Assembly (NCBI GenBank): GCA_965216685.1
Contig: OZ244195.1
Span: forward strand, 657,610 to 721,609
DNA length: 64,000 bases
Source: Acidimicrobiales bacterium
Lineage (GTDB): Bacteria > Actinomycetota > Acidimicrobiia > Acidimicrobiales > SZUA-35
Reading direction: 5' to 3'
Below the pieces are notes generated by a model that searched no databases, was not told the DNA's origin, and saw only the letters and a list, made by a program, of their open reading frames with translations. Made by a program: the position numbers and the translations under genes. The stretch's first letter is position 1, and every line of letters starts with the position of its first letter. Shown piece by piece: positions 9,348 through 62,807 of this stretch.

Positions 9348-9964
9348 TCGAGCTGGCCGTCGCCCACTCGAACGGCCTGAGCCGGGCCGCCATCGACCGG
9401 CTTCGGGCCGCCCTCCCCAGCGAACGACGGCACAAGAGCAGCTCCTACCCTCACCAGTCAGACCGCGACGCCTCTGTCGTCACCTTCGCCCTGCTGCAAC
9501 GGCTGTGGCGGGAGCGAGACGGTGGACCGTTGCCCGACGTCGTGGCCGGGAACGGGGGCAAACCGACGTTCGCCGGAAACGAGGACCGTTACTTCAACCT
9601 GTCGCACGATCCCCCCATCTGCGTGTGCGTGCTGGCCCCGGCGCCGGTGGGGGTGGATGTGCAGACCAGAGTGCCGTTCGACGATGCTCTCTTCGATCGC
9701 ATCGCCTCCCCGAACGAGCGCGAACTGCGGGAGCAGTTCCGGCGATCCGATGACCTGAGCGCGCTGTGGACCGGCAAGGAGGCGATCATGAAGCGCTCGG
9801 GCCAGGGCCTGTCGTGCTCACCCCGGCACATCGACACCGTTGCCGCCACCGACATCGTGACGTTGCGGGAGGGCGCCGCCACCATCAGCGTCAGCGTCCA
9901 GGGAATGTCGGCCGACGAGGTGCTGGCCGAACTGCGAATCCGTCACCCACAACTCATCCCCTGA
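9344..9964 (+). CDS. 4'-phosphopantetheinyl transferase (Sfp type)
   Basis: GTGA overlap with the KAS stop. Motifs FNLSHD, VGVDVQ, WTGKEAIMK. Confidence 0.8.
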   Translation: MIELAVAHSNGLSRAAIDRLRAALPSERRHKSSSYPHQSDRDASVVTFALLQRLWRERDGGPLPDVVAGNGGKPTFAGNEDRYFNLSHDPPICVCVLAPAPVGVDVQTRVPFDDALFDRIASPNERELREQFRRSDDLSALWTGKEAIMKRSGQGLSCSPRHIDTVAATDIVTLREGAATISVSVQGMSADEVLAELRIRHPQLIP

Positions 9965-9965
9965 C

Positions 9966-10010
9966 AATTGCAGTAGAAAACGAGGCTACCCCTCGTTTTC
10001 TACTGCAATT
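9966..10010. repeat. family-A palindromic repeat, copy 1 (20-bp perfect stem, 5-nt loop)
   Basis: AATTGCAGTAGAAAACGAGG ctacc CCTCGTTTTCTACTGCAATT. Lies between convergent genes. The right arm encodes the last codons and TAG stop of the minus-strand gene. Confidence 0.85.
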
Positions 10011-10800
10011 CTTTGGAGTCGGGGACGCTCGACAGGTGGCGGGGCTGGCCCATGAAGACGCCGTCGCCGGCCGGGAGGACCTTGGCCGTCTCAACGAAGA
10101 ACTTCCGGGCCTGGTTGCCCACCATCCGGACGAAGCCGTAGTTGGCCGTGCCTCCGACCACGGCGCCCACACCGAAGGGCAACAGCTTACCGATGGCCAG
10201 GGCACTGCGGCGGGTTCCGTACTTGGCCACGACTTGTCCGGCCAGATCGGTGTTGATGCGACGCAGAGCGTCGAGGGTGAGGGCATCTCCCCCGGCCACG
10301 CCGGCCGCTCGTTGGCCGAGACCGTCGCCGGCCGCCGTTTGACCGGCGGCGTCGAGCAGTGAGGCGAACTTGTCGGCCGATTCCTCACCGAAGGCCAGCA
10401 CCGCCAGCACCCAGGCTCGACGTTCCTCCTCGGTTGCTTCGGTCAAGCCGTTGGCGGCTCCGATGGCCATGATCAGATCGGTGGCCCGCATTCCGAACCA
10501 GGCCATATCGGCGGCCAGGGCGCCGGCTGCGGTGGCGGTACCCACAACCGGAGCGGCGGCGATGGCCCCGGTGGCGGCACCGACCAGAGTCAGCTCCTTC
10601 TTGAACCGGGAGATGATGGCCGCGGTCTTCTCCTCGGCGGAATCGCCGTCGGCTTCGGCCGCGATCTCCAAGGCGTCGTCCCAACGCCGCTCCACCGCGG
10701 TGTCAACCGCTTTCAGCACCGCCTTGCCAAGAACATCGAGGGCCGGCCCCGGCACGTTCTCGACGGCCTTCTTCTGTAGGTACTTACTGATTTTCGACAT
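10000..10800 (-). CDS. EcsC-family-like membrane-associated protein
   Basis: Likely start is ATG 10800 (MSKISKYLQ). Gly/Ala-rich hydrophobic core. The C-terminal GKLLPFGVGAVVGGTANYGF..ARKFF resembles EcsC (recalled, not searched). Confidence 0.55.
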   Translation of the reverse strand: MSKISKYLQKKAVENVPGPALDVLGKAVLKAVDTAVERRWDDALEIAAEADGDSAEEKTAAIISRFKKELTLVGAATGAIAAAPVVGTATAAGALAADMAWFGMRATDLIMAIGAANGLTEATEEERRAWVLAVLAFGEESADKFASLLDAAGQTAAGDGLGQRAAGVAGGDALTLDALRRINTDLAGQVVAKYGTRRSALAIGKLLPFGVGAVVGGTANYGFVRMVGNQARKFFVETAKVLPAGDGVFMGQPRHLSSVPDSKELQ

Positions 10801-11245: not shown

Positions 11246-11299
11246 CGCCTACAGGGTAGTGCCGTGTCCGCTGACGTTGGTTCGGGACCAGCGCGACCG

Positions 11300-11345
11300 T
11301 TGTGTGCGCTCCGGCGTTCACATGTGAACGCCGGAGCGCACACAA
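11300..11345. repeat. family-B hairpin H1: 46-bp perfect palindrome
   Basis: TTGTGTGCGCTCCGGCGTTCACA|TGTGAACGCCGGAGCGCACACAA. Lies in the divergent intergenic region. Confidence 0.85.
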
Positions 11346-11393
11346 CCGGGATCCGATGCCGGACCGCGGGGTCAGCCGTGAAATAGTGGGAGG

Positions 11394-24760: not shown

Positions 24761-26050
24761 ATGTCAGCCGCCGAGTCAACGGACGCCCCATATTCCCATG
24801 GGGGTGGGCACTCCCACCAGATGGAGGGCGGGTGGGATGAGTGGATGTCGAACCCCGTTCTGCGGGCGCTGCTCAGCCTGCTTCTGGTCGCCGCCGTGAT
24901 CACCGCCATCGCCGTGGCCAATCTGTGGCCCGACGGTTCGGGGCGGACCGCAGTGCGGGCCGAGGCGGCCACGGTGGGTCTGGCGGCCGAGCGGATCGAG
25001 GCCGTGGTCGAGGAGGTGGTCGACGAGGAGTGCGACTTCTCGACCCAGGGCAATGAATGGGAGTGCCGAACGGTGGTGGTGACGCCGTCGGCCGGGCCCG
25101 ACGCCGGGTCACTGCTGATACTGCCCGAGTTCGTCAAGGACAGCGGCCCTCCGGTTCCCGACCTGTCCGTGGGCGACGACATCATGATCGACTACGAACC
25201 CAACACCGGGTTCTACTCCTACGGCGATCAGGACCGCCGCTCGGCGCTGCTGTGGTTGTTCATCACCTTCGCCGTGGTTGTGGTGGCGCTCGGCCGGTTG
25301 CGGGGTCTGCTGGCCCTGGCCGCCATGGCCACCACAGTGGCCGTGCTGGTGGGCTTCGTGGCTCCGTCGGTGCTGGACGGTAACGACCCGGTGGCGGTGT
25401 CAGTGGTGGCCGCCGCGGTCATCGCTTTCGTCAGCCTGTATCTGACCCACGGGGTCAACCCCACCACCACCGTGGCCTTGATCGGCACCTTGTTGGCGCT
25501 CCTGCTCACGCTGGTGCTGTCGAGTTTGTTCTTCGATCTGGCCCGGTTCACCGGCCTGGCCACCGAGGAGGGGATCCTGCTTCCGGTGCTGGCTCAGGAC
25601 ATCAACATGGCTTCGTTGCTTCTGGGCGGCGCCGTTATCGGGGCCCTGGGCGCATTGGACGACGTGACCGTGACCCAGGTGGCCACGGTGGCCGAGTTGC
25701 GGGCTCAGAATCCCCATCTGAGCCGCCGCCAGCTGTTCGCCTCCGGCATCCGAGTCGGCCGGGAACACATCGCGGCCACCGTGAACACGCTGCTGCTGGC
25801 CTACGCCGGTGTCAGCATGCCATTGTTGCTGCTCTTCGTGGTTTCCGACCTGTCCCTGGTCATGATCGCCAACTCCGAGATCGTGGCTGTGGAGATCGTG
25901 CGCACCCTTTGTGGCTCGCTCGGTCTGATCGCGGCGGTCCCCATCACCACCTGGCTGACCGCCGTTCTGGTCTCGGCCGGCGCCCCCAGCGATCGTCATC
26001 ACCACACCGAGGCCGCCCCACCAACAATTGCAGCAGAAAACGAGGGCTGA
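24761..26050 (+). CDS. YibE/F-like membrane protein
   Basis: N-terminal TM, extracytoplasmic domain, then about 7 TM. YibE/F-like organisation (recalled). The last 8 codons and stop lie in repeat copy 2. Confidence 0.7.
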   Translation: MSAAESTDAPYSHGGGHSHQMEGGWDEWMSNPVLRALLSLLLVAAVITAIAVANLWPDGSGRTAVRAEAATVGLAAERIEAVVEEVVDEECDFSTQGNEWECRTVVVTPSAGPDAGSLLILPEFVKDSGPPVPDLSVGDDIMIDYEPNTGFYSYGDQDRRSALLWLFITFAVVVVALGRLRGLLALAAMATTVAVLVGFVAPSVLDGNDPVAVSVVAAAVIAFVSLYLTHGVNPTTTVALIGTLLALLLTLVLSSLFFDLARFTGLATEEGILLPVLAQDINMASLLLGGAVIGALGALDDVTVTQVATVAELRAQNPHLSRRQLFASGIRVGREHIAATVNTLLLAYAGVSMPLLLLFVVSDLSLVMIANSEIVAVEIVRTLCGSLGLIAAVPITTWLTAVLVSAGAPSDRHHHTEAAPPTIAAENEG

Positions 26051-26070
26051 CCTCGTTTTCCACTGCAATT
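26026..26070. repeat. family-A palindromic repeat, copy 2
   Basis: AATTGCAGCAGAAAACGAGG gctga CCTCGTTTTCCACTGCAATT. Two internal mismatches. Lies between convergent genes. Confidence 0.85.
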
Positions 26071-26084
26071 CTGGGAAGGGGAAG

Positions 26085-30152: not shown

Positions 30153-30719
30153 ATGACAACCCACACCCCACAACCCCCAGACCCCGTCCGGCTACCGGCT
30201 GACGAGGTGCTCCGTCTGATTGACAAGCGGTCCTATGGCGTGCTGGCCTCGACGTCGCCGGCCGGCCGGAGCCATTCAGCCGGGGTGCTCTACTCCCGGA
30301 CCGGATCATCACTTGTCTTCAGCACCATGCGATCAAGTCGCAAAGCCCGCAACGTGGCCGCCAATCCCCATGTGGCCATGACCATCCCCGTCCGCCGAGT
30401 GCCCGTCGGTGGTCCGCCGTCGGCCATCATGTTCCAGGGCCGGGCCGAGATCCTCGACCTCGATGACCGCTGGCTGCGAAGCCAAGCCGACGCCGGCCAT
30501 CTCAAGTCGATAACCGGCCATGGTGAGTTGGAGCTTGCCGGTGGCTGTTTCGTCCGGATCGACCTGCCCGACCGGGTGGTGACCTACGGCCTGGGCATGT
30601 CGTTGCTGTCGCTGATCAGAGACCCGCTGAATGCCTCCGGTTGGAGCGACCTCAGCACAGTACACCGGGCTGCCGGGCACCGGGCTGCCGGAGCAGGTTT
30701 GTGCGTTGCGGTGTCATAG
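30153..30719 (+). CDS. pyridoxamine 5'-phosphate oxidase-family (FMN/F420 split-barrel) protein
   Basis: SYGVLASTSPAGRSHSAGV...RKARNVAANPHVAM pattern. The C-terminal about 20 aa derive from a 15-bp duplication and hairpin H2. Confidence 0.7.
   Translation: MTTHTPQPPDPVRLPADEVLRLIDKRSYGVLASTSPAGRSHSAGVLYSRTGSSLVFSTMRSSRKARNVAANPHVAMTIPVRRVPVGGPPSAIMFQGRAEILDLDDRWLRSQADAGHLKSITGHGELELAGGCFVRIDLPDRVVTYGLGMSLLSLIRDPLNASGWSDLSTVHRAAGHRAAGAGLCVAVS
30663..30692. repeat. 15-bp tandem duplication inside a CDS
   Basis: caccgggctgccggg / caccgggctgccgga (14/15 identical). Encodes HRAAG-HRAAG. Confidence 0.85.
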
Positions 30720-30740
30720 TGACACCGCAACGCACAAACC
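30696..30740. repeat. family-B hairpin H2 (21-bp perfect stem, loop TAG)
   Basis: GGTTTGTGCGTTGCGGTGTCA tag TGACACCGCAACGCACAAACC. The loop TAG is the stop codon of the upstream gene. Confidence 0.85.
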
Positions 30741-30770
30741 TTCCCATGGCTCGACACGTGGCCCAAACCA

Positions 30771-39891: not shown

Positions 39892-39900
39892 CTGCACGGG

Positions 39901-39945
39901 CCACCAGCCGCCAGCCACCAGCCACCAGCCACCAGCCACCAGCCA
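39901..39945. repeat. heptanucleotide microsatellite (CCACCAG) x about 6.4
   Basis: ccaccag ccgccag ccaccag ccaccag ccaccag ccaccag cca. Begins 10 nt after the kgd stop and abuts repeat copy 3. Confidence 0.9.
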
Positions 39946-39994
39946 ATTCTTGCAGCAGAAAACGAGGCCGGCCCTCGTTTTCTACTGCAGGATT
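39945..39994. repeat. family-A palindromic repeat, copy 3 (degenerate ends)
   Basis: AATTCTTGCAGCAGAAAACGAGG ccggc CCTCGTTTTCTACTGCAGGATT. The right arm carries the stop and last codons of the HAD gene. Confidence 0.8.
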
Positions 39995-40707
39995 TCGAGG
40001 TCGAGGAGGGCCTGCAGCTCGGTCAGGGCGGCGATGGGGTCGACGACCTTGATGGTGGTCATGCCCATGGCTCGGGCCGGCTTCAGGTTGACGCCCAGGT
40101 CGTCGAGAAACACCACCTCGGCCGGCTCCACGCCGGCCCGGTCGAGGGCATGCTGGTAGAACTCGGGTTCCGGTTTTCGTACGCCGACCACCGATGATTC
40201 GATGATGAAGTCGAAGCGATCCAACACGCCGGCCACCGCCGCCTTCTCCTCCGAGGTCCGCCGATCGACCTGGTCCGATCGATCGGCGGCGAAGTTATTG
40301 GTCAGGCAGGCGGTGATCAGGCCGGCTCGTTTGATGGTGTCGATGGCGGCGGCCATGGCCGGTCGCACGGTCCCGGCCAGCATGGCCAGAACGGCTCGGC
40401 CGTCGATCTCATGACCGAGCTCACCGGCTTCGGCCTCGAAAAGGGCGACAAACCGGTCGATGTCGACGTCGCCTCGTTCCAGTCGGGCCCAGGCGTTGTC
40501 GTCCGGGTTGGTGGCGTTGATGGTGCGGATGAAGCCATCGGGTAGTGCATTGCGCCGCTCGTAGCGGGCAAAGGCCTCGAACGGGCTCGTGAGAACCACG
40601 CCGCCGAAGTCGAAGAACACGGCTCGAAACGACGATTCGGTCACGGGCCACGATGGTAGTCGGTGATGTTCGGACCGTTCGGGCCTGCTGGGGTTTTTCC
40701 GGGCCAT
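39982..40707 (-). CDS. HAD-superfamily hydrolase
   Basis: DxD motif in VFFDFGGVVL, and a later FLDDLGVN motif. The start is uncertain (ATG 40707 or an internal GTG). Confidence 0.7.
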   Translation of the reverse strand: MARKNPSRPERSEHHRLPSWPVTESSFRAVFFDFGGVVLTSPFEAFARYERRNALPDGFIRTINATNPDDNAWARLERGDVDIDRFVALFEAEAGELGHEIDGRAVLAMLAGTVRPAMAAAIDTIKRAGLITACLTNNFAADRSDQVDRRTSEEKAAVAGVLDRFDFIIESSVVGVRKPEPEFYQHALDRAGVEPAEVVFLDDLGVNLKPARAMGMTTIKVVDPIAALTELQALLDLEILQ

Positions 40708-40747
40708 CGTTCTGATTCGGCTGCGAGCGTGATTGACTGTGCATGTC

Positions 40748-42454: not shown

Positions 42455-42540
42455 GGCGGCACAGCGTGGCGGGCTGAGGCTTCACCGGCCCGGACCGCGA
42501 AGCCAACCGAGATCGAAGGGGCGACGGTAGCCTCAGCACC

Positions 42541-44235
<1,695 letters not shown>

Positions 44236-44246
44236 CGACACCGCAA

Positions 44247-44266
44247 CCCGACCTCGCCCGGTCGGG
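44247..44266 (+). terminator. candidate stem-loop after ettA
   Basis: CCCGACC tcgccc GGTCGGG, 7-bp GC-rich stem, 12 nt after the stop. No U-tract. Confidence 0.3.
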
Positions 44267-44271
44267 CCGGC

Positions 44272-44308
44272 GGTCTCACATCGTGGCCGGTGCTGCCGAT
44301 GTGAGACC
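44272..44308 (+). promoter_or_regulatory. 12-bp stem / 13-nt loop hairpin ending 1-2 nt before the next start codon
   Basis: GGTCTCACATCG tggccggtgctgc CGATGTGAGACC, then c-ATG (44310). Confidence 0.4.
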
Positions 44309-44309
44309 C

Positions 44310-44651
44310 ATGGCATCTCGTTCAGCGTCAGGCTCCACCAAGACCCGGAAGGCGTCGGCCAAGAACAAGAAGTGGAAGAGCCGGGCTGTGCTTCGCCTGA
44401 TCGAGGCCGGCAGCACTGCCGAGTGCCCCCACTGCGGGGAGCGGGTGAAGTTCCGGGCCCGCCATCGGGATCAGCAGGTCATCTGCAACGTGTATGTCGA
44501 TGGGGTGTGGAACCGGGTCGAGCAGTACCACGCCGAATGCTACGACGATGCCGGTACGCCCTACGGCAAACCCGACAAGAAGCAGAGCCTGACCCGCAAC
44601 CAACCCAAGAAGTCCGACGCCGCCGGGCAGGACAAGTCGGCCAAGAAGTAG
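44310..44651 (+). CDS. small basic zinc-ribbon-like protein
   Basis: 113 aa. CPHC...C..Y....HAEC Cys/His pattern between Lys-rich tails. Confidence 0.5.
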   Translation: MASRSASGSTKTRKASAKNKKWKSRAVLRLIEAGSTAECPHCGERVKFRARHRDQQVICNVYVDGVWNRVEQYHAECYDDAGTPYGKPDKKQSLTRNQPKKSDAAGQDKSAKK

Positions 44652-44701
44652 CCGTCCACAATTCGGACCGACGATTGGGTGAATACGAACGTCGGCAACC
44701 T

Positions 44702-45493
44702 ATGGTGACGCAGGTGCCTTCCCATTCCGACGTTCCTCCCATCAGCACCGACCTGGACGACCACCAATTGGCGGCCGCCGTCGCCGCCGAAACAGGCAAG
44801 CTGCTGGTTTCGGTTCGACGGCAGATGGTGGAACAGGGAACCGATCACTGGTCACTCAAAGACGCCGGCGACCAGGCGGCACACCAGTTCATCGTCGAGT
44901 CGCTATCCCAGGCCCGTCCTGATGACGCCGTACTCTCCGAAGAGGGGGCCGATCGCCGGGAACGGCTCACGGCGCCGCGGGTGTGGATCGTCGACCCGCT
45001 CGACGGAACCAGGGAGTTTGCCGAGCCGCCCCGGATCGACTGGGCGGTTCATATCGCTCTGGTCACCAACGGGGTGCCCATCGCCGGAGCCGTGGCCCTA
45101 CCGGCCGAGGGTGTGACGTTGACGACCCGACCGGCCGAGCAGCTCCCCGACGCTGTTGACGGCCGGCCCCGAGTCATCGTCAGCCGGACCCGGCGACCAC
45201 CGGCGGCCCAGATGCTGGCCCGGGAACTGGGAGCCGACTACATCGAGCTCGGCTCGGCCGGAGCCAAAGCCATGGCCGTCGTCCGGGGCCAGGCCGACAT
45301 CTACGCCCATTCGGGCGGCCAATACGAGTGGGACTCCTGTGCCCCGGTGGCTGTGGCCCAGGCCGCCGGTCTCCACTGCTCGCGGCTCGACGGCTCACCC
45401 ATGCTCTACAACAATCCCGACCCCTATCTCCCCGACCTCCTGATCTGCCGCCCGGAGTGGGCTGAGCGGAGTCTGGCCATCCTCAACGGCTGA
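44702..45493 (+). CDS. cysQ: 3'(2'),5'-bisphosphate nucleotidase / inositol monophosphatase family
   Basis: Start at ATG 44702. EEG, WIVDPLDGT and WDSCAP motifs. Confidence 0.75.
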   Translation: MVTQVPSHSDVPPISTDLDDHQLAAAVAAETGKLLVSVRRQMVEQGTDHWSLKDAGDQAAHQFIVESLSQARPDDAVLSEEGADRRERLTAPRVWIVDPLDGTREFAEPPRIDWAVHIALVTNGVPIAGAVALPAEGVTLTTRPAEQLPDAVDGRPRVIVSRTRRPPAAQMLARELGADYIELGSAGAKAMAVVRGQADIYAHSGGQYEWDSCAPVAVAQAAGLHCSRLDGSPMLYNNPDPYLPDLLICRPEWAERSLAILNG

Positions 45494-45504
45494 ACGAGCA
45501 GGCG

Positions 45505-46359
45505 GTGACCCACGGCGACATGAAGTACGGCGACATGGAATACAGGGTGATTGACTACCAGATCAGCGGGAGAAGCGCCGTCGTCACCCTTGATCGCCCC
45601 GACCGGGGCAACGCTTGGACCGGCCGGCTCCACGCCGAATACATCCACGCCGTGGCCCGGGCCGAGATCGACCAGGCCGTGCGAACGATCGTCATCACCG
45701 GAAACGGTTGGGCCTTTTGTGTCGGCGGCGACTCCGATGCCCTGGCCGGTCACGCCGACCGGGGATCCTACGACGATGGCCTGGCAGCGGCCGAAGGCTC
45801 GACCACCCACATGCCCGGTCGCGACCTCCATCCCCAATTCGACCACCAACTGGCCTTCCACTTCGGGCTGACCAAGCCAGTGCTGGCCGCCATCAACGGC
45901 CCTGCAGCGGGCATCGGTCTGGCCCTGGCCTGCTTCGCCGACGTGCGATTCGCCGTTCCCGGGGCCAAGTTGACAACGGCCCACGGGAAGCTGGGTCTGC
46001 CGCCCGAATACGGTTTGTCGTGGATCCTGCCCCGCCACATCGGGTTGACCAGAGCCATGGATCTGTTGTTGACCTCGCGTGTGATTCTGACCGATGAGGC
46101 GTTCCAGTGGGGTCTGATCAACCGCCTGGTTCCACCATCAGAACTCATGGAGACGGTTTTGGACTACGCCGAGACCATGGCAACCCAGAACTCGCCGTCG
46201 GCCCTGGCCGCCACCCGCCACATGACCTACCTCGATCAGCACCGTGGAATCGGTGAGTCGGTGACCGATTCCCTCGTTCGGCTGAACCAGATGATGGGTT
46301 CGGCCGAGTATCGTCAAGGGGTCGAGGCGCTCCGAGACAAACGATCACCGGACTTCTGA
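45505..46359 (+). CDS. enoyl-CoA hydratase/isomerase (crotonase) family
   Basis: FCVGGD oxyanion region. Typical C-terminal EALRDKRSPDF. Confidence 0.85.
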   Translation: MTHGDMKYGDMEYRVIDYQISGRSAVVTLDRPDRGNAWTGRLHAEYIHAVARAEIDQAVRTIVITGNGWAFCVGGDSDALAGHADRGSYDDGLAAAEGSTTHMPGRDLHPQFDHQLAFHFGLTKPVLAAINGPAAGIGLALACFADVRFAVPGAKLTTAHGKLGLPPEYGLSWILPRHIGLTRAMDLLLTSRVILTDEAFQWGLINRLVPPSELMETVLDYAETMATQNSPSALAATRHMTYLDQHRGIGESVTDSLVRLNQMMGSAEYRQGVEALRDKRSPDF

Positions 46360-46371
46360 GGCAGGCGAACG

Positions 46372-47967
46372 TTGCCAGTGCAGTCAACCGAACCAGATGA
46401 CCTTCACCTGGGCGCCTTCTCCGATGATCCGCCGTGGTTGATGACCGACCAGGAACCACAATGGCTCGACGTGGTCGATCTGTTGCGGCGCCAGCAGGCC
46501 CGTAACCTTCCCGAACTGTTGACCCCCCCTCGGGTTCCCCCGCTGCGGCGGGCGGCCAGGGTGATGACCGTGCTCGGCCGGGCCATCGGCATTTGGCGGC
46601 TCCGGGAGCGGGGAACCGAGCAGTCACGGGCCGCCTTGTCCCGTCGCATCCGGGAGGCGGCCGAGATTCTCGGTCCGACCTACATCAAGCTGGCCCAGAT
46701 CATAAGCGCCGGTGAAGGAGTGTTTCCCCCCGAGCTGGTGGCCGAATGCAAGAAGTGCCGCGATCAGGTACCGGCCGTTCCCTACGACCAGGTGGTGGCG
46801 GTCATCGAACAGGATCTCGGTCAACCCCTTCACCAGATCTTCCGCCACATCGATCCGACACCGGTGGCGGCGGCGTCCATCGCCCAGGTCCACCGGGCCA
46901 CGCTGGTGTCGGGTCAGAACGTGGTGGTCAAGGTACAGCGCCCCGGAATCGACCAGGTTGTGCGCCGGGATCTCCAGGTGCTCAGCTGGCTGGCCCCCCA
47001 TCTGGTCGGCCGAATTCCGGTGTCGGCCCTGGCCAATCCCCCGGCTCTGGTCGAGCTGTTCGCCGAAACCATCGTCGAGGAGCTCGATTTCCGGTTGGAG
47101 GCGGCCAACATGCTCGATGTCGGCCGGGTCTACGCCGAGCTGGATCAACGCAACTTCATCGTGCCCCGGCCCCACCCGGTCCACGTCACCCGACGGGTTC
47201 TGGTCATGGAGGAGCTCGGCGGCTTCAACTTCAACGACGTCGAAGCCATGCGAGCGGCCGGGGTCGACACCGAGGCGGTGCTCAAGACGGGCATGATCGG
47301 TTTCCTGGAGGGTGTCTTTCTCCACGGCGTGTTCCACGGTGACCTGCACGGCGGGAACCTCTACATCATGGCCGACGGTCGAACCGCCCTGATGGACTTC
47401 GGCATCACCGGACGTCTGACCGAGAGCGAGCGCTTGGCCTTCCTGCGGATGATGATGTCGGCCACCACCAACAACGTCAGTGGCCAGATCGAAGCGCTCC
47501 GGGATCTGGGCGCTCTCCCCCACGACGTCGACATCGACGCCGTCATCCGCGACCTCGGCCTCGACGGGCCGCCCATCGATCCCACCACTCTGGCCCCCGA
47601 TCAGCTGGTCAAGGAGCTCCAGCGGGTGGTCAAGGCCCTGTTGGGATACGGCGCCCGTATGCCCAAACCGTTGATGCTGTACGTGAAGAACCTGATCTTC
47701 ATCGACGGCGCCACCGCCACGCTCGCTCCCTCCCTCGACCTGTTCGCCGCCATCACCGAGGTGGCCACCCACTTCGCCACGACCCACGGACCAACGATCG
47801 CCGCTCAGCTGGGGATGCAACAGCAAACCTGGGACCTCGACCTCGACGGGGTGAAGGCCGGATTCGGTATCGACCCGGCCACCACATCCCATTTCACCTA
47901 CTCCGACCTCAAACAGCGGCGGGAGCTGATCCGCCGCCGGCTGGGCGATCAAGTCGGCAACAGCTGA
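46372..47967 (+). CDS. ABC1/UbiB-family atypical kinase
   Basis: LGPTYIKLAQ, AAASIAQVHRA, HGDLHGGN. Confidence 0.85.
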   Translation: MPVQSTEPDDLHLGAFSDDPPWLMTDQEPQWLDVVDLLRRQQARNLPELLTPPRVPPLRRAARVMTVLGRAIGIWRLRERGTEQSRAALSRRIREAAEILGPTYIKLAQIISAGEGVFPPELVAECKKCRDQVPAVPYDQVVAVIEQDLGQPLHQIFRHIDPTPVAAASIAQVHRATLVSGQNVVVKVQRPGIDQVVRRDLQVLSWLAPHLVGRIPVSALANPPALVELFAETIVEELDFRLEAANMLDVGRVYAELDQRNFIVPRPHPVHVTRRVLVMEELGGFNFNDVEAMRAAGVDTEAVLKTGMIGFLEGVFLHGVFHGDLHGGNLYIMADGRTALMDFGITGRLTESERLAFLRMMMSATTNNVSGQIEALRDLGALPHDVDIDAVIRDLGLDGPPIDPTTLAPDQLVKELQRVVKALLGYGARMPKPLMLYVKNLIFIDGATATLAPSLDLFAAITEVATHFATTHGPTIAAQLGMQQQTWDLDLDGVKAGFGIDPATTSHFTYSDLKQRRELIRRRLGDQVGNS

Positions 47968-47982
47968 GCCTCACCCGGCGTT

Positions 47983-48024
47983 CTGTGCGCCCTACACCCC
48001 GTTTCCGGGGCGTAGGGCGCACAG
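47983..48024. repeat. family-B hairpin H3
   Basis: CTGTGCGCCCTACACCCCG tttc CGGGGCGTAGGGCGCACAG, with 1 mismatch. Lies 16 nt after the stop. Confidence 0.8.
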
Positions 48025-48063
48025 GTCTTCGGCATTCTCCGACCAAGCCGCTAGAAATGACGG

Positions 48064-48723
48064 GTGCGCCTTGTCATCGCCGAATGCACCGTCGACTACG
48101 CCGGTCGCCTCACCGCTCACCTTCCCCGGGCCACCCGCCTGATCATGGTCAAGGCCGACGGCTGCGTCTCGGTCCATGCCGACGGCGGGGCCTACAAACC
48201 GATGAACTGGATGACGGCCCCCAACACGGTGCGGGAGGCCGACGACGAGTGGGTGGTGACCAACCCCAAGGGCGAGACCCTAACCATCACCATCCACCAG
48301 ATGATCAGCGACGTGTCACACGAACTGGGCAACGATCCGGGCCTGCAGAAGGATGGAGTCGAAGCTCATCTGCAAGAGCTGTTGGCCACCGATCCGGGCC
48401 GCCTCGGCCCCGGCATGCGGTTGATCCGCCGAGAGTTTCCGACCGAAATCGGCCCGGTCGACCTGTTGTGCCGCAACGCCGATGACGAGGTGGTGGCGGT
48501 CGAGATCAAGCGGCGGGGTGAGATCGACGGGGTTGAGCAGTTGACCCGCTACCTCGACTTCCTCAACCGCCAGCCCGACCTGTCGCCGGTCAGAGGCATG
48601 TTCGTGGCCCAGGAGATCAAGCTGCAGGCCAAAACTCTGGCCAGCGACCGCGACATCGACTTCCTGGAGGTCGATTACGACGAACTTCGGGGCATCGAGC
48701 GGCCCCAGCAGAAGCTCTTCTGA
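48064..48723 (+). CDS. nucS: endonuclease NucS (EndoMS)
   Basis: GTG start. [16 protein letters not shown]... and the C-terminal [20 protein letters not shown] nuclease block. Confidence 0.9.
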
Positions 48724-48735
48724 CCGCTTTACGTT

Positions 48736-48790
48736 TCCAAAATTGCAGTGGAAAACGAGCTGTGAGCTCGTTTTCCACTGCAATTTTGGA
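48736..48790. repeat. family-A palindromic repeat, copy 4 (25-bp perfect stem)
   Basis: TCCAAAATTGCAGTGGAAAACGAGC tgtga GCTCGTTTTCCACTGCAATTTTGGA. Confidence 0.85.
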
Positions 48791-48805
48791 GCGAGGGTTG
48801 GCTCC

Positions 48806-49675
48806 TCAGCTGTAGGTCAGGAGGCCGTTGTCGAGCACGACCCGGCCGTCGTCGGCCACCGTCTGGTGGACGGCCCGGCCGTCGTCCTCCACCCACATGC
48901 GGACGGTGAGAGCCTCACCGGGCAGGACCGGTGAGCTGAAGCGCCCGTCCATCGACTTGAACCGGGCCGGATCCGACCCACACAGGGTGTGCAGCAAGGC
49001 CCGGCCGGTGAAGCCGTACGTGCACAGCCCGTGGAGGATGGGGCGGGGGAAGCCACCGACGTCGGAGAACTGTTTGTCGGAGTGCAACGGGTTTCGGTCA
49101 CCGCACAACCGGTAGAGCAGGGCCTGATCAGGGCGGGTTTGATAGGTGACCTCGCGGTCGGGCCTGCGTTCGGGGGCCACGTTGACGGCGGCCGACGGTC
49201 CCCGGTCGCCGCCGAACCCTCCCTCACCGATGATGAACATCGACGAGGTGGTCTCGAACAGAGGCTGCCCGTCGTCGGTCGAGGTGGCCGTGGCCTTCAT
49301 GGCCACCAGCGCCCCCTTGCCCTTGTCGTAGATGCCGGTCAGTTCGTCGACCATCTCCACTTCACCCGATGCCGGAATGGGGCGGTGTATCGTCACTCCC
49401 TGCTGACCGTGGACCAGCATGCGGTTGTCCCAGGTTCCGGCCGCCTCACGGGCGCTGCGGCCGCCCTCGGCCTTGAAGCTCGACATGACCACGAAGGTGG
49501 GGAACACCTGCTGATCGACCCCTCTGGTGTTCTCAGTGGTGAACTCCAGCTCGCGGCTGACCGGGTCAAGGGTTCCGGCCCCTATTCCCAGCGCGTAGAG
49601 CAGGCAGTCGTCGCTGGTCCACGACCAGCGACGGGGCTCGCCTCTCGTACCGACGGCGTCCGGGTTTACGGGCAT
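48806..49675 (-). CDS. MaoC-like (R)-specific enoyl-CoA hydratase, double hot-dog
   Basis: 289 aa. The C-terminal hot-dog carries GDRNPLHSD. Confidence 0.85.
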   Translation of the reverse strand: MPVNPDAVGTRGEPRRWSWTSDDCLLYALGIGAGTLDPVSRELEFTTENTRGVDQQVFPTFVVMSSFKAEGGRSAREAAGTWDNRMLVHGQQGVTIHRPIPASGEVEMVDELTGIYDKGKGALVAMKATATSTDDGQPLFETTSSMFIIGEGGFGGDRGPSAAVNVAPERRPDREVTYQTRPDQALLYRLCGDRNPLHSDKQFSDVGGFPRPILHGLCTYGFTGRALLHTLCGSDPARFKSMDGRFSSPVLPGEALTVRMWVEDDGRAVHQTVADDGRVVLDNGLLTYS

Positions 49676-49736
49676 GGCATCATCCTTCCGATGAATCGTC
49701 CTTCCGACGAGTAGTGGTGGTGTTGGCTGAGCGGGA

Positions 49737-50663
49737 TCAAAACGGCGTCGGCCGACCGGGGCCGGTGACCGGTTGTCCCGACATGTCGCTGTTGGGCTGG
49801 GCCTCGGCCATCAACTTCTTCACCGCCGGGCCGATGGCGACCGGGTCGTCGACCGGTTCGACGGCCGGTCCCCGGTGCCACATGTTGGCTACGGCCAGAA
49901 CCCGACCGCTGGCCTCGAACACCCGGCCGGTCACCGGAGCCGACTCACTGCTGGCCAGCCAGGTGGCGATGGGGGCGATCCAGCGAGGATGCATCTGCTC
50001 CCGCTCCTCGTCACTACCCTGCCCCATCCCCAGGTTCTCGGTCATGCGGGTCAGGGCGGCCGGGGCAATGGCGTTGACCGTCACCCCGTAGCGGTGGAGT
50101 TCCTGGGCGGCGATGATGGTGAAGGCGGCGATCCCGGCCTTGGCCGCCCCGTAGTTGGTCTGACCCGGGTTGCCGTAGATGCCCGACACCGAGCTGGTGT
50201 TGATGATGCGGGCGTCGTTGGATTCACCGGCTTTGGCCCGTTCCCGCCAGTAGGCGGCGGCATGACGGGCGGGGGCGAACGTACCCTTCAGGTGGACCTG
50301 GATCACGGCGTCCCACTCGGCCTCAGTCATGTTGGTCAGCATGCGATCCCGCAGAATGCCGGCATTGTTGATGACGACGTCGATGCCCCCGAAGTGGTCG
50401 ATGGCGGTGTCGATGAGATTCTTGGCCCCGGCGAAGTCGGACACGTCGTCACCGTTGACCACGGCCTCGCCCCCCGATTCGGTTATCTCCGCCACCACCT
50501 GCTGGGCCGGGCTGAGATCGTCACCGGTTCCGTCGACATCGCCCCCCAGATCGTTCACCACCACCTTCGCCCCGTGGTGGGCCAGCATCAGCGCATGCTC
50601 CCGGCCGATGCCCCGCCCCGCGCCGGTCACGACGGCGATTCGCCCCTCACACAGCTTTGTCAT
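49737..50663 (-). CDS. SDR-family oxidoreductase (MFE-2-like 3-hydroxyacyl-CoA dehydrogenase type)
   Basis: TGAGRGIG, NNAGI, YGAAK. Confidence 0.85.
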   Translation of the reverse strand: MTKLCEGRIAVVTGAGRGIGREHALMLAHHGAKVVVNDLGGDVDGTGDDLSPAQQVVAEITESGGEAVVNGDDVSDFAGAKNLIDTAIDHFGGIDVVINNAGILRDRMLTNMTEAEWDAVIQVHLKGTFAPARHAAAYWRERAKAGESNDARIINTSSVSGIYGNPGQTNYGAAKAGIAAFTIIAAQELHRYGVTVNAIAPAALTRMTENLGMGQGSDEEREQMHPRWIAPIATWLASSESAPVTGRVFEASGRVLAVANMWHRGPAVEPVDDPVAIGPAVKKLMAEAQPNSDMSGQPVTGPGRPTPF

Positions 50664-50788
50664 CTCTCACCTCGTTGCTCATGTCGAAGGGCAGTGCCCT
50701 ACGGTGGCCGCAATCGGGCAAACCCGTTGACGATGATGTCACATTGCCACTGTCGTTCCAAAGTTCCCGTACCGTCACAGTGTGGACG

Positions 50789-53152
50789 ATGACCGCCAAC
50801 CCGGCATTCGACGTGGCAGAATGGACTCCGGTGACTACTGAAGGTGACGGTGACCAGACAGGATCCATCGATCAGTCGGGCGTTCAGGCCGACTCGGTCG
50901 AAGCTCTGCTGGCCGAGCTTCTGGGCTCCGATGTCAATCCACCGGTTGACGCCACCGACCAGGTCGATCAGTCCGCCGGCGATGCCGGCCCGATCGACCT
51001 GAACGACGTCATCATCGGGAGCGAAGATCCAACGATGGTGTTCCCCTCGACCGGTACCCCGGCCGAGGAGGAGTCGGCCGAGGCGGTCGACAAACCGGCT
51101 TTCGACCGGGGCGAGGTTGGTCTCGACGGCGACGTGGTCGACGAGACGGCGGTCCTCCATACGGCCGGCCCCGAACCCACCGTTGTGGCGCCCATGCCGG
51201 TGGCGCCGCCGGTCGATCGGGCCGCACCACCCGACCGGCCGCCGGCCGAGCCGAGGCGATCCAGGGGCTCGGGCCCCGGACGATTGCTGAAGTTGGGCGC
51301 GCTGGCCCTACTTGGTCTGTGCCTGCTCCTGGTGGCGGCCTGGGCCGTCGATCTGGCCCGTCATCAGGACACGGTGATGCGGGGGATTGAATTGGCGGGA
51401 ACGTCGCTCGAAGGTATGAGCCGAGCCGATCTGGACGAGCTGCTCGACGAGCAACGGGATGAGCTGGCGGCCACGCCGCTCGACGTGGTGGTGGGGGAAA
51501 CGACGATAACCACCGATCCGGTCACCATGGGCATGGCCTTCGACCGCGACGCCATGGTCGACGACGCCATGGGTGTGGGACGTACCGGATTCTTTCCCAC
51601 CCGACCGTTGACCTGGGTCGGATCACTGTTCAGCAGCCAGGAACTTGAACCCCGCTATGCCATCGATGCCGACGCCACCACCGAGGCGGCCCAAGCCGTC
51701 GTCGCCAGCCTGCTCGATCAGCCGGTGGAGCCGGAGCTGATTCTCGACGGCAGCGACCAATTCACCGTGCTGCCGGGTGAGAGTGGCATCACGTTCAGCT
51801 CCCGGGAACTGGTGGGACTGCTCCCATCGGTTGTCGAGGCCGGGCCGCCCTATGAGGTCGAGCTGCAGGCCATCGTGGCCCAGCCCGAGATCGATCAGTC
51901 CGATCTGGAAGCGGTGGCCGCCGAGATCAACGATCTGACGGCCGAACCGGTCCGGATTCAGGTTCTCGACGACTTCGCCGACGTCGAACCGGCCATGTTG
52001 AAGTCATGGGCCGACGCCGAAACCGAGGGCGAGGTGACCTGGTCATTCGAGCCGTCACGAGTGCTGGCCGATCTCCGCCCCCTTTTCCCGACACTGGGTT
52101 CGGAGGATCAGCGGGCCCGATTCACCGTGGTCGATCAGGAGCCGGTGATCGTCCCGGCCTCGGAGACGGTGGTCTGCTGTGACGAGGATTCGGTCAACCG
52201 CCTGCTGTCGGGTCTCCAGGCTCCGATCCCGGTGGCCGACGACGACGAGGACGACAGCGAATCATCCGAAGACGATGAGGCTCCGGCCCGCACGATCGTT
52301 CTGGAGCCCTCCATCGTCGGGGCCGACGAGGGGGTGGCCGAGCTTGAGACCCTGGGCATCGTGGAGGAGGTCAGCACTTTCACCACCAATCACGCCTGCT
52401 GCCAGCCCCGGGTCAAGAACATCCAGCGGTTCGCCGACCTGATGCAGGGTGTCATCATCCGGCCGGGCGAGTCGTTCTCCCTCAACGATCACGTCGGCCG
52501 TCGTACCATCGAGAAGGGCTTCGTGGCCGACGGGGCCATCAACCTCGGGGTTCTGGAGCCACAGGTCGGTGGCGGCATCAGCCAGTACGCAACCACCTTC
52601 TTCAACGCCTCGTTCTTCGCCGGACTGGAGTTCCTGGAATACCAGTCGCACTCGCTGTACATCTCCCGCTATCCCCGGGGTCGTGAAGCCACCATCTCAT
52701 GGCGCCGACCCGATCTCGAGGTTCGCAACAACACACCGTACGGAATCCTGGTCTGGAACGAGTACACCTCGACCTCGATCACGGTGAGCTTCTACTCGAC
52801 CAAACACCTCGAGGTCGAGGCGCTGCCGCTGCAACGTTCATCGGAGCGTCAGTGTCGGGTCGACATCACCCCCCGTTTGATCACCTATCCCGACGGTACA
52901 ACGGCCGAAGACAGCGTCTACGCCGTCTACCGGCCCGGTGAAGGCCTCGACTGTGCCGGCAACTCGACTCGACCAGAGCTCGAGCCCGAAGCCCCCACCG
53001 CCACCGAGCCCCAGCCGGAACCCGAGCCGGAGCCAGAACCAGAACCCGAGCCGGAGCCCGAGCCTGAGCCGGAGCCGGCCGATCCCGATGATGATCCGGC
53101 GGCAGCCGTCAACACCACTCAGGAGGCCACAGGCGACGACGGGGGTGGTTAG
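50789..53152 (+). CDS. VanW-domain cell-envelope protein with N-terminal TM anchor and C-terminal (EP)n tail
   Basis: VanW block RPGESFSLND...GGGISQYATTFFNA. TM LGALALLGLCLLLVAAWAV. Start is ATG 50789 or GTG 50780. Confidence 0.75.
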   Translation: MTANPAFDVAEWTPVTTEGDGDQTGSIDQSGVQADSVEALLAELLGSDVNPPVDATDQVDQSAGDAGPIDLNDVIIGSEDPTMVFPSTGTPAEEESAEAVDKPAFDRGEVGLDGDVVDETAVLHTAGPEPTVVAPMPVAPPVDRAAPPDRPPAEPRRSRGSGPGRLLKLGALALLGLCLLLVAAWAVDLARHQDTVMRGIELAGTSLEGMSRADLDELLDEQRDELAATPLDVVVGETTITTDPVTMGMAFDRDAMVDDAMGVGRTGFFPTRPLTWVGSLFSSQELEPRYAIDADATTEAAQAVVASLLDQPVEPELILDGSDQFTVLPGESGITFSSRELVGLLPSVVEAGPPYEVELQAIVAQPEIDQSDLEAVAAEINDLTAEPVRIQVLDDFADVEPAMLKSWADAETEGEVTWSFEPSRVLADLRPLFPTLGSEDQRARFTVVDQEPVIVPASETVVCCDEDSVNRLLSGLQAPIPVADDDEDDSESSEDDEAPARTIVLEPSIVGADEGVAELETLGIVEEVSTFTTNHACCQPRVKNIQRFADLMQGVIIRPGESFSLNDHVGRRTIEKGFVADGAINLGVLEPQVGGGISQYATTFFNASFFAGLEFLEYQSHSLYISRYPRGREATISWRRPDLEVRNNTPYGILVWNEYTSTSITVSFYSTKHLEVEALPLQRSSERQCRVDITPRLITYPDGTTAEDSVYAVYRPGEGLDCAGNSTRPELEPEAPTATEPQPEPEPEPEPEPEPEPEPEPEPADPDDDPAAAVNTTQEATGDDGGG
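53006..53077 (+). repeat. GAGCCN hexanucleotide repeat encoding (EP)12
   Basis: gag ccc cag ccg gaa ccc gag ccg gag cca ... read directly. Confidence 0.85.
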
Positions 53153-53155
53153 CGG

Positions 53156-53178
53156 GTTTCGGCCCCGACAGCCGAAAC
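53156..53178 (+). terminator. candidate stem-loop after the VanW gene
   Basis: GTTTCGGC cccgaca GCCGAAAC, 4 nt after the stop. No U-tract. Confidence 0.3.
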
Positions 53179-53224
53179 TCGAAGCGAGGCGCTCCGGGCC
53201 GAAGCCGGTAGGTTTTGCTGGTAA

Positions 53225-54493
53225 GTGGATCAGCATTATGAACCTGTCCGCAAGACCGACATTGTGGTGGTTGGAGCAGGACCAGCGGGCACTGCGGCAG
53301 CCATCGAGGCGGTACGTTCCGGACTCGACGTCGTCGTCATAGACAAGGCAACCTTTCCCCGCTCCAAATGCTGCGGGGACGGTCTGACCACCAGCGCCCT
53401 CCGCCAACTGGAGGATCTCGGTTTCGATCCCGCTTCGGTTCCCAGCTGGACCCGGGTCGACGATGTCGTCATCACGAGCCCGGCCGGGCGCCGGCGAACC
53501 TATCCCCTGCCTCGGGCCGACGGCGTCTTCGCCGCCGTGGCCCGGCGATCCGAGCTCGACCATCAGCTGGTGCTACTGGCCCGCCGGGCCGGAGCGGAAG
53601 TGCTGGAGAACCATGAACTGGTCGACCTCGACCAGGACCAGTCGTCGGTGACGCTGCGGGTCCAGCACGACGATCGCACCTGCAACATCCGCACCCGGTT
53701 CGTGGTGGCGGCCGATGGTATGTGGTCACGCACCCGCAAGCTGGCCGGGGTGGCACCAGCCGGCTATCGGGGCGACTGGCACGCCTTTCGCCAATACTTC
53801 AAAGGAGTGTCGACCTTCGCCCAGGACAAATTGATCGTCTGGTTCGAACCCGACCTCCTGCCGGGCTATGCCTGGTCCTTCCCCCTGGCCGACGGGCGGG
53901 CCAATGTAGGGTTCGGCATCATCCGAGCCGAAGGGGGAAAGCGGATCCAGAACATGAAGTCGTTGTGGTCCGCTCTGCTGGAACGACCCCACATCCGATC
54001 CCAGTTGGGGTCAAAGGCGGAACCGGAGGAGCCTCATCGAGCGTGGCCGATCCCGGCCCGTCTCGGCCAACTTCCGCTGGCCCTGGGCCGGGTGTTGTTC
54101 ACCGGAGACGCCGCCGCCGTGACCGATCCCATGAGCGGGGAGGGCATCGGCCAGGCCCTGGAGAGTGGCCGGATGGCCGTGGGGGCCATCGTCGGCGAGG
54201 GCATCGACCATCCCACCGCGGTACGCGACCGCTATCAGAAAACCCTGTCCCGCAGCATCGGTCGGGATCACCGCTTGGCCCAATCACTTTCCCGACTGCT
54301 GGCCACGCCATGGATCACCGAGGCGGCACTGACCGCCACCGGCGCCACCGCCTGGACCCGGGAAAACTTTGCCCGCTGGCTGTTCGAGGACTACCCCCGG
54401 GCCACCCTGATCAACCCTCGCCGCTGGCCGGAGAAGCCGCTGGGTCAACCTGCCCCCTTCGCTTGTCTGGATTCGTCGAACTCCCCAACCTAG
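53225..54493 (+). CDS. FAD-dependent oxidoreductase, geranylgeranyl reductase family
   Basis: VVVGAGPAGTAAA dinucleotide-binding motif, KCCGDGL, FTGDAAAVTDPMSGEGI. Confidence 0.8.
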   Translation: MDQHYEPVRKTDIVVVGAGPAGTAAAIEAVRSGLDVVVIDKATFPRSKCCGDGLTTSALRQLEDLGFDPASVPSWTRVDDVVITSPAGRRRTYPLPRADGVFAAVARRSELDHQLVLLARRAGAEVLENHELVDLDQDQSSVTLRVQHDDRTCNIRTRFVVAADGMWSRTRKLAGVAPAGYRGDWHAFRQYFKGVSTFAQDKLIVWFEPDLLPGYAWSFPLADGRANVGFGIIRAEGGKRIQNMKSLWSALLERPHIRSQLGSKAEPEEPHRAWPIPARLGQLPLALGRVLFTGDAAAVTDPMSGEGIGQALESGRMAVGAIVGEGIDHPTAVRDRYQKTLSRSIGRDHRLAQSLSRLLATPWITEAALTATGATAWTRENFARWLFEDYPRATLINPRRWPEKPLGQPAPFACLDSSNSPT

Positions 54494-54503
54494 AGTTTTG
54501 CTC

Positions 54504-55511
54504 ATGGCCTCAGCATCTGCACGCGAACTTCGCTCCGGATCATCCGAGCTGCCACCGGCCGACTACATCGAGGAGACGCGCCGGCTGTATGCCACCCTTG
54601 GCTACGACGACTACCGTTGGGCCGAGCGACCTGAACGCCCGGCCTGGAGCCCAATCGACAAGCCATTGCGGTCAGCCACCGTCGCCATCGTCGGATCCGG
54701 AGGTGTCTACCGGCGAGGCCAGATCGCCTTCCACACCAAGGACGACACGTCGATCCGGGTCATCGACGTCGATACACCGGCTGAGGAACTGCGGGTGTCA
54801 CACTTCGCATACGATCAAACCGACGCCCGGTCCGACCCCAACTGCGTGTTCCCACTGGAACGGCTGCGGGAACTGGTGGAGCAGGGTGTGGTCGGCGGCA
54901 TCAGTCCCCTCCACTTCGGTTTCATGGGAGGAATCTACTCGACCCGACGCCTGCTGGCCGAGACGGCGGAGTTGCTGAGCGACCAGCTCAAGCGGATGCA
55001 CGATGGCGGCCAACTTGATGTCGTGCTACTGGTACCGGTTTGACCGGTCTGCCACCAGTCGGTCGGTCTGATCGCACGACAAATCGAGGACAGCGGCATC
55101 CCCACGATCTCCTTGACATCGGCCCGAAGCATCACCGAGCGGGCCAACCCGCCTCGCTCCGTCTTCATCGACCTGCCCCTGGGTCACACGGCCGGAGCCC
55201 CCAACGACCCGGTGGGCCAACGGCAGCTCCTCACCGACGCTCTGGTGGCCGGATTTGCCATGACCGAACCGGGCCAGATCGTCGATCTGCCGTTCCGTTG
55301 GATCGACGACAAGTGGAAGTCGGCACCGCTCTCGTGGAGCCGGAAGGCGCAGGAACAGGGAGTCACCGACGTCTCGGCCGGCGACACCAGAACGGCCCGA
55401 GACCCGAATCCGCATTATCACGACGACGCCGATCGGGCGGCGGCCGAGGCGGTGGCCTGGGATGAACAGTGCCAGGTCTGCCTGGGTCTGCCCGATCAGG
55501 GCGCCGGCTGA
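54504..55511 (+). CDS. GrdB (glycine/sarcosine/betaine/proline reductase selenoprotein B) family protein with in-frame TGA 55041-55043: candidate Sec codon, or a nonsense-disrupted gene
   Basis: ORFs 54498..55043 and 55113..55511 share a frame with no other stop between them. Read-through gives LLVPV-U-PVCHQSVGLIARQIEDSGIPT. Confidence 0.6.
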
Positions 55512-57697: not shown

Positions 57698-57842
57698 GTC
57701 CTTCTATCGGCCCGAGCAGCGCCGACGTTGATCGGAAACGTGCAGCCGGCGCGCCGGCGCCAGGTTCCACGTGGTCTTCGTCATTCTCCTACACTCAATG
57801 GCCGCAGCTCGTGGCCTGTATCGGCCCATCAAAAGGAGCACC

Positions 57843-58751: not shown

Positions 58752-58761
58752 CGCTCACGCT

Positions 58762-58813
58762 GAACTTTGGGACTGTTACGACCCGTTAACGGGTCGTAAC
58801 AGTCCCAAAGTTC
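58762..58813. repeat. 52-bp perfect palindrome centred on GTTAAC
   Basis: GAACTTTGGGACTGTTACGACCCGTT|AACGGGTCGTAACAGTCCCAAAGTTC. Lies between convergent genes. Confidence 0.85.
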
Positions 58814-58822
58814 GGGCCGCGC

Positions 58823-59263: not shown

Positions 59264-59307
59264 AGGGCCGGATCCGGCCGGCCTTTGTCGGCCAGCACTT
59301 TGTACAC

Positions 59308-62740: not shown

Positions 62741-62750
62741 TCACCCCTTC

Positions 62751-62790
62751 TGTGCGCCTCCAGCCCCGTTTCCGGGGGCTGGAGCGCACA
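62751..62790. repeat. family-B hairpin H4
   Basis: TGTGCGCCTCCAGCCCCG tttc CGGGGGCTGGAGCGCACA (two 1-nt bulges). Lies 10 nt after the stop. Confidence 0.8.
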
Positions 62791-62807
62791 CAATGGGTTG
62801 ACCGCGA

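Follow-up and report, generated by a model that had tools for sequence, protein, structure and literature searches.

Four hairpins, H1 to H4 (Family B), lie dispersed over the window, the 64-kb stretch of DNA analysed here, and by sequence comparison they form a single family, its members graded in similarity in the series H2-H1-H4-H3. They look like an element of a common type, met here in a lineage that has received little study: a repeat family with changes mirrored on both arms, placed at stop codons and absent from relatives. From these features we infer that the copies are transcribed, that they act as terminators or at transcript 3' ends, and how they may be copied. The account that we favour, and consider somewhat probable, is that H1-H4 are young, lineage-specific dispersed palindromic repeats serving as bidirectional terminators without a U-tract or as protectors of 3' ends. 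The positions and gene settings of these hairpins, and of the Family-A and singleton hairpins that share the window, are given in Table 1.

Table 1. Long hairpins of the 64-kb window with their structure and gene setting.
Hairpin	Position	Strand	Structure	Setting
H1	11297..11348	.	Family B; perfect 52-nt palindrome	Divergent: 120-aa membrane-protein gene (start 11245, - strand) / 98-aa + strand ORF (11394-11690)
H2	30693..30743	.	Family B; perfect 22-24-bp stem	PNPOx-like ORF 30153-30719 ends in the hairpin loop, whose TAG (30717-30719) is its stop; uvrD2 downstream
H3	47983..48024	.	Family B; 19-bp stem, one A.C mismatch, loop TTTC (GAAA on - strand)	First base 15 nt past ABC1-kinase stop; last base 39 nt ahead of nucS GTG 48064
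H4	62743..62798	.	Family B; core 62751-62790, stem lengthened by flanks ACCC..TT / AA..GGGT	Convergent: stop 62740 of the HerA-like/DUF853 gene and stop 62808 of the luciferase-like monooxygenase gene, 10 and 17 nt off
A1	9964..10012	.	Family A (AATTGCAGTAGAAAACGAGG..CCTCGTTTTCTACTGCAATT)	Convergent genes; right-arm TAG is the stop of the - strand EcsC-like gene
A2	26016..26080	.	Family A	Convergent YibE/F and malic-enzyme genes; loop TGA is the YibE/F (+ strand) stop
A3	39945..39995	.	Family A	Convergent 2-oxoglutarate dehydrogenase (OGDH) and HAD hydrolase genes; right-arm TAG is the HAD (- strand) stop
A4	48736..48790	.	Family A; perfect 26-bp stem	Convergent nucS and MaoC dehydratase genes
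Singleton	58760..58815	.	Perfect 56-nt palindrome, no loop	Convergent SDR and SnoaL-like genes

The foot TGTGCG[CT]...[GA]CGCACA is common to all four Family-B hairpins. The window has four matches to TGTGCGY-N15-40-RCGCACA where 0.04 would be expected, and in 100 dinucleotide-preserving shuffles the count never came to four; an earlier note on this DNA had singled out the stem-base motif, which is indeed far beyond expectation, and the other copies, H1 and H2, also fold as hairpins. The word TGTGCGC occurs four times in 64 kb where about 1.5 occurrences are expected, three of them inside Family-B hairpins, and is otherwise at background frequency. Being this rare in the window, it is not a common word of its 65% G+C sequence. 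Computed folding energies of H1-H4 lie between -40 and -49 kcal/mol on both strands, with z-scores between -6.6 and -9.7, and the foot-to-foot distance is 40 nt for H1, H3 and H4 and 37 nt for H2. The single A.C mismatch of H3 on the + strand corresponds to G.U on the - strand, and the mid-stem of H4 is shifted by one base, so that one base bulges out of each arm, C on the left and G on the right, or else a 7-nt loop forms. The 12 nt following each hairpin contain 1-5 T on both strands; there is no T-tract and hence, as had been pointed out before, no canonical intrinsic terminator.

H3 and H4 are the pair that the earlier note described as true repeats with a common foot, apex and loop and a complementary change in mid-stem, and their sequences read just so. 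The two have in common TTCTGTGCGCC (left flank and foot), CCCCGTTTCCGGGG, GCGCACA and TCACCC, are identical at 11 + 14 + 7 bases, and carry the same apex and loop, CCCCG-TTTC-CGGGG, whereas a 5-bp block in mid-stem differs between them yet is complementary within each. Two details of that description need adjusting. The sequences given for H3 and H4 were right, with the strings beginning 2-3 nt upstream of the positions attached to them, a trivial offset; and the left flank TCACCC is present in both copies, but at offsets of 7 and 4 nt, and in H4 it partly pairs with GGGT of the right flank.

H1 and H2 had been credited with the foot only and with unrelated interiors, which proved wrong: their arms are identical at 17 of 20 positions (85%), and the three substitutions and a one-base length difference are each mirrored on the opposite arm. 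H4 has ties to both pairs. Its right arm matches H1 over TTGTGTGCGCTCC[A/G]GC, and the reverse complement of that arm, ATTGTGTGCGCTCCAGC, resembles H1 (GTTGTGTGCGCTCCGGC); the left arm of H4 (TTCTGTGCGCC) is of the H3 type. H4 is thus a mosaic of two arm types, and this explains the one-base offset in its mid-stem. The interior is not "freely covarying", as had been proposed, since the copies form a graded homologous series, and common descent alone can therefore explain the shared foot.

In an alignment of the four sequences, 90.6% of cells pair and 13 of 22 pairs have changed on both sides; neither value was reached in any of 500 shuffles, figures that rest on four related sequences and do not amount to a probability, though the pattern is clear. 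Sliding the registers of the same alignment by 1-3 columns lowers the paired cells to 31-55%. Pairing has been kept through change on both arms. That the stems have so few mismatches, although the copies differ at many positions, is in keeping with selection on pairing. It also fits copying from arm to arm by template switching, which can make multi-base compensatory changes in one event (PMC8794818) and would account for the block that differs between H3 and H4.

A covariance model built from H1-H4 (R1) found no further member in the 64-kb window. The model gives other long hairpins 18-33 bits from structure alone, so that its matches in related loci are no proof of membership. The best of these, at 28 bits, a score that unrelated long hairpins also attain, is a hairpin in a relative (L081 7877-7923), which lies 4 nt past the stop of an ABC-F gene and has a foot, GTGCGCC...GGCGCAC, resembling that of Family B.

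The window is chromosomal DNA of Acidimicrobiia/Acidimicrobiales, and the best match to its NucS among species-representative genomes is 93%, in an Acidimicrobiia MAG. Three sets of relatives, with 78-91% protein identity, share gene order with the window. Their retrieved regions contain no Family-A or Family-B hairpin and neither motif. At the sites comparable to those of H2, H3, H4, A2, A3, A4 and the singleton, none of seven has a hairpin in the syntenic relatives; the same junction is present without it for H3, H4, A3, A4 and the singleton, while gene content differs in relatives at the H2 and A2 sites, which are therefore not clean empty-site comparisons. The spacers are mostly shorter in the relatives: 6-20 nt against 67 nt in the window between the HerA-like and monooxygenase genes, 9-48 against 82 nt between nucS and MaoC, 4-65 against 90 nt between OGDH and HAD, and 16-21 against 71 nt between SDR and SnoaL. 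The notion of a dispersed, insertion-like element is borne out by this absence from orthologous junctions and by the longer spacers, and the hairpins are, on comparison of these loci, lineage-specific additions. Coding flanks align well between window and relatives but spacers do not, and insertion boundaries, a target-site duplication and a clean empty site are therefore not definable.

Stems of at least 16 bp number seven in the window, compared with 1.2 per 64 kb over 1.47 Mb of related loci, which also have scattered long hairpins. The H3/H4 pattern TGTGCGCCN{4,6}CCCCGTTTCCGGGG had no match in metagenome contigs or in viral contigs, and the Family-A pattern had none in metagenome contigs. 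Searches by blastn with H3 against plasmids and with H1 against phages gave no match. Rfam, run over the whole window at gathering thresholds, gave no match either; with E values up to 10, the segment 47900-48900, which includes H3 and A4, yielded only sub-threshold look-alikes of miRNA precursors, generic hairpin matches.

Gene content differs exactly at some hairpin sites. At the H3 site (47967-48064), two relatives have the ABC1 gene and nucS separated by an RDD-domain gene that is absent from the window; the closest MAG (L001) has neither RDD gene nor hairpin at this junction. At the H2 site (29106-30719), an AraC and PNPOx pair stands between the bPH_2 gene and uvrD2 in the window only, with H2 at its right edge, and at the A2 site (26050-26085) Aldolase_II and MFS genes stand between the YibE/F and malic-enzyme genes in relatives only. 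These coincidences are suggestive; the numbers are small, and the relatives differ among themselves too.

The earlier note had proposed mapping the hairpins relative to genes and had not weighed their position. Three of the four Family-B hairpins (H2, H3 and H4) are at gene 3' ends, H1 being the sole exception, and among all nine long hairpins of the window eight overlap a stop codon or lie within 0-17 nt of one. Family A and the singleton (n=5) are all between convergent genes, starting 0-53 nt past the stop of the + strand gene (all but one at most 12 nt) or overlapping it, and lying 0-15 nt from the stop of the - strand gene. The leading functional reading is therefore a role in non-canonical termination or at the 3' end, comparable to that of TRIT or REP.

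A Pfam scan of about 50 ORFs of the 64-kb window shows housekeeping genes, and none of these ORFs encodes a transposase, a RAYT, an integrase or any further enzyme specific to hairpins; the hairpin-binding transposase or nuclease genes that the earlier note suggested looking for are thus not found in the window. DNA-metabolism genes adjoin three of the four Family-B hairpins (H2/uvrD2, H3/nucS and H4/HerA-like), a pattern seen after the fact, and relatives keep these genes without the hairpins.

Several features near the hairpins were recorded along the way. Directly upstream of nucS, CCGCTAGAAA-N6-GTG is found in the window (48047-48066) and in two relatives (L001 6252-6268, L082 about 12195-12212); this element is conserved across relatives while the remainder of the nucS spacer is not, and it is likely to be the nucS promoter with a leaderless start. 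At uvrD2 (30771-30803), GTG 30801 is probably the start of a leaderless message, with TACCCT 7 nt upstream, and the counterpart in a relative (L088) has TACGAT-N7-GTG at the same place. Another 6 nt upstream of the uvrD2 TACCCT is TTGTCACAGTG, which we take to resemble, loosely, the mycobacterial RecA-independent damage-promoter motif. A CoA-transferase family III gene on the - strand (12551-13875) is seemingly split over two overlapping frames; the Pfam match in one frame covers profile positions 1-247 of 366, and the split may be a frameshift or mark a pseudogene. A 15-nt tandem array (ACGGCCAAGAAGGCC, about 24 copies, 41937-42371) lies in ORF 40733-42454, where it encodes a Lys/Ala-rich repeat tail; for this ORF no Pfam match was found in relatives.

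Family A has the consensus AATTGCAG-YR-GAAAACGAG..CTCGTTTTC-YR-CTGCAATT over its four copies, where YR is TA, CA or TG. Its sequence places an A-run and a T-run on either side of a GC core, which would be like a bidirectional terminator. Short tandem repeats occur next to two of the hairpins: a perfect 15-nt duplication (CACCGGGCTGCCGGG x1.9, 30663-30691) just 5' of H2, within the tail of the PNPOx-like ORF, and a (GCCACCA) x6.6 array (39900-39945) immediately 5' of A3. An Ilumatobacteraceae MAG of the Acidimicrobiia (L065) carries two copies of a palindrome of its own, CGATCACGCC[A/T]GGGGTC[A/T]GACCCCAGGCGTGATCG, within 9 kb (2017-2057 and 10662-10696), which suggests that lineage-specific hairpin families are common in Acidimicrobiia.

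The closest precedent for Family B is TRIT, the Tuberculosis Rho-independent terminator motif of Mycobacterium (Gardner et al. 2011, PMC3152330), which is conserved in sequence and structure, palindromic, bidirectional, located tightly around stop codons and confined to one genus (PMC3152330). Family B resembles it as a sequence-and-structure family, palindromic and bidirectional, dispersed within one lineage and lacking a proven factor, and in being placed narrowly around stops and partly inside coding sequence, as H2 is, with H1 as the exception. The two differ in host (Acidimicrobiia against Mycobacterium, with no known sequence relation), in the interior, which in Family B varies by mirrored changes, strong sequence conservation being described for TRIT, and in number, with 147 TRIT copies against the four of Family B so far, a count that refers to the 64 kb of genome read.

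In mycobacteria, the predominant type of predicted terminator is reported to be a U-tract-less hairpin no more than 50 nt from the stop (PMC12288462), and Family B shares with these "I-shaped" terminators (Unniraman et al. 2001; reviewed in PMC12288462) a stable hairpin at most 50 nt past the stop, the absence of a U-tail and a high-GC actinobacterial host. H2, H3 and H4 are such stable, U-tail-less hairpins at most 50 nt downstream of a stop; H1 is not. The class differs from Family B in being defined by structure and position, without a shared sequence, and its activity as a terminator is disputed (PMC3993855). The U-rich tract of 7-9 nt that comes after the GC-rich hairpin of a canonical terminator is absent from all of H1-H4, and a terminator scan of 40000-59999 did not call H3.

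Other accounts of the family involve an enzyme acting on DNA. REPs affect mRNA stability and termination, and H1-H4 could be REP-type or IS200/IS605-type substrates, their foot read and the elements copied by a HUH/Y1 transposase (RAYT or TnpA) encoded elsewhere in the genome, with effects on transcripts secondary; we regard this as unlikely, while granting it some weight. A conserved foot with a variable interior and insertions specific to this lineage would suit it, and the REP/BIME/REPIN elements with RAYT of Proteobacteria (PMC3479197, PMC3116915) are, like Family B, short palindromes that lie outside genes but close to gene ends; one genome holds several classes of hairpin, and the hairpin foot has a conserved element, which in REP is read by the enzyme. 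Yet the stem of a REP is imperfect and bulged, measures about 10 bp and is accompanied by a GTAG guide on its 5' side, whereas Family-B stems are near-perfect over 17-24 bp and their TGTGCGC foot is itself paired. No GT[AG]G stands 5' of the foot, the flanks before TGTGCG being GTTG, GGTT, GTTC and CTTC, and where a REP needs a mismatched bulge to be bound by its nuclease, TnpA-REP in E. coli (PMC3479197), the palindromes of H1 and H2 are perfect, H3 contains a single mismatch and H4 one-base bulges. Membership in the REP/RAYT system fails on these two defining features, the GTAG guide and the bulged, imperfect stem. REP systems also have their extragenic repeats in high copy number, and the 64 kb read here contain four copies; the way in which Family B spread may nonetheless be REP-like. 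Neither a Y1 transposase nor a RAYT was seen among the roughly 50 window ORFs, and the literature searched holds no paper joining REP, RAYT and Actinobacteria. It also seems improbable to us, if worth stating, that both hairpin families are undescribed, recently expanding mobile elements of Acidimicrobiia in the form of perfect palindromes; these would insert at or over stops, sometimes supplying the stop in loop or arm, their arms would be kept complementary by template switching, a putative enzyme would recognise the TGTGCGC foot in its paired form, and gains or losses of genes may be favoured where they insert. That the hairpins are attC-like or other structure-specific recombination sites mediating gene gain and loss is scarcely credible. 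Integron attC sites, read as folded single strands, likewise have conserved ends and a variable self-complementary centre, and one may cite the position of H2 at the edge of a gene pair that relatives lack, of H3 where two relatives have the extra RDD-domain gene and of A2 where relatives have two extra genes. However, attC sites have other cores (the ends here are TGTGCGC / GCGCACA, with no GTTRRRY/RYYYAAC core); the extrahelical bases and cassette arrays of attC are missing here, and the window encodes no integrase; housekeeping genes in mixed orientations flank the hairpins; the closest MAG lacks the hairpin along with the RDD gene; gene content often differs between the relatives themselves; and the numbers are small. 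The attC-like reading lacks every defining feature.

The remaining accounts place the hairpins in RNA or treat them as binding sites. A stem of 17-24 bp is long enough for RNase III. H1-H4 might thus be dsRNA processing sites, cut by RNase III or a similar enzyme in read-through ABC1-nucS and PNPOx-uvrD2 messages, which would be separated or destabilised, with the polymerase not stopped, which we think rather unlikely. Their stems of that length are almost free of mismatches, two copies stand between co-directional genes, and the foot-to-foot length is constant (with H2 shorter); but one copy is between convergent genes and one between divergent genes, and a constant length is expected from common descent as well. 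Little can be said for DNA operators, in which a dimeric regulator would read two TGTGCGC half-sites and control nearby DNA-repair genes. In its favour, the uvrD2 start comes about 27-57 nt after H2, the nucS start 39 nt past the end of H3, and both divergent starts are about 50 nt from H1; the three DNA-metabolism neighbours, noticed after the fact, would be its targets. Operators have no need, however, of 10-13 further complementary bp between half-sites, nor of mirrored substitutions; the centres of the half-sites are separated by 33 bp, and relatives keep the same genes without the sites. The reading is very unlikely because the interior pairing is unnecessary to it and H4 stands between two gene 3' ends. 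Nor would we expect unrelated local terminator hairpins, alike by chance or convergence, an idea that the data already disfavour. U-tract-less hairpins at gene ends are common in high-GC Actinobacteria, and related loci do hold scattered long hairpins, but chance or convergence would have to produce the 11 + 14 + 7 identical bases of H3 and H4, the 85% identity of the H1 and H2 arms and a foot present in four hairpins where 0.04 are expected, all without any hairpin at the orthologous junctions of relatives.

Three further candidates were tried and rejected: DNA-uptake-sequence pairs, as TGTGCGC is at background frequency outside the hairpins; CRISPR, as there is no regular spacing; and a sequencing-adapter artefact, as the copies differ in sequence and occupy exact intergenic positions.

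Under the favoured account of dispersed repeats acting at gene ends, four copies of a short non-coding palindromic repeat would have spread recently in this Acidimicrobiia lineage, landing in spacers just past stop codons and once over a stop codon. A transcript from either strand would then fold into a 17-24-bp hairpin without a U-tract, which would act as a bidirectional "I-shaped" terminator or as a barrier protecting or processing the transcript 3' end. Such a hairpin could insulate the next gene, nucS from the ABC1 kinase gene and uvrD2 from the PNPOx-like gene, or convergent partners from one another, as with the HerA-like and monooxygenase genes. Complementarity of the arms would persist in one of two ways: a change on one arm might be selected against until matched, or be copied across by intramolecular template switching. 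The TGTGCGC foot would be kept mainly through common descent and may also be read by a putative copying enzyme or binding factor.

Mycobacterial RNA polymerase is reported to need a U-tract in vitro (PMC3993855). The hairpins may therefore not terminate transcription alone, and may instead protect or process 3' ends once termination has come about in another way. They are also not required at those junctions, because relatives manage without hairpins at the same places.

These hairpins leave the current understanding of termination or transposition unchanged. They mark likely transcript boundaries, which is of use in annotating Acidimicrobiia genomes. If confirmed genome-wide, they would be a useful natural case for how repeats spread and how perfect stems last, by selection or by template switching, because they are absent in relatives with about 85-90% protein identity and many of their changes are mirrored on both arms. 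Such confirmation would also mean that Acidimicrobiia, a widespread and little-studied actinobacterial class, have their own young families of gene-end palindromes, comparable to TRIT and the REPs.
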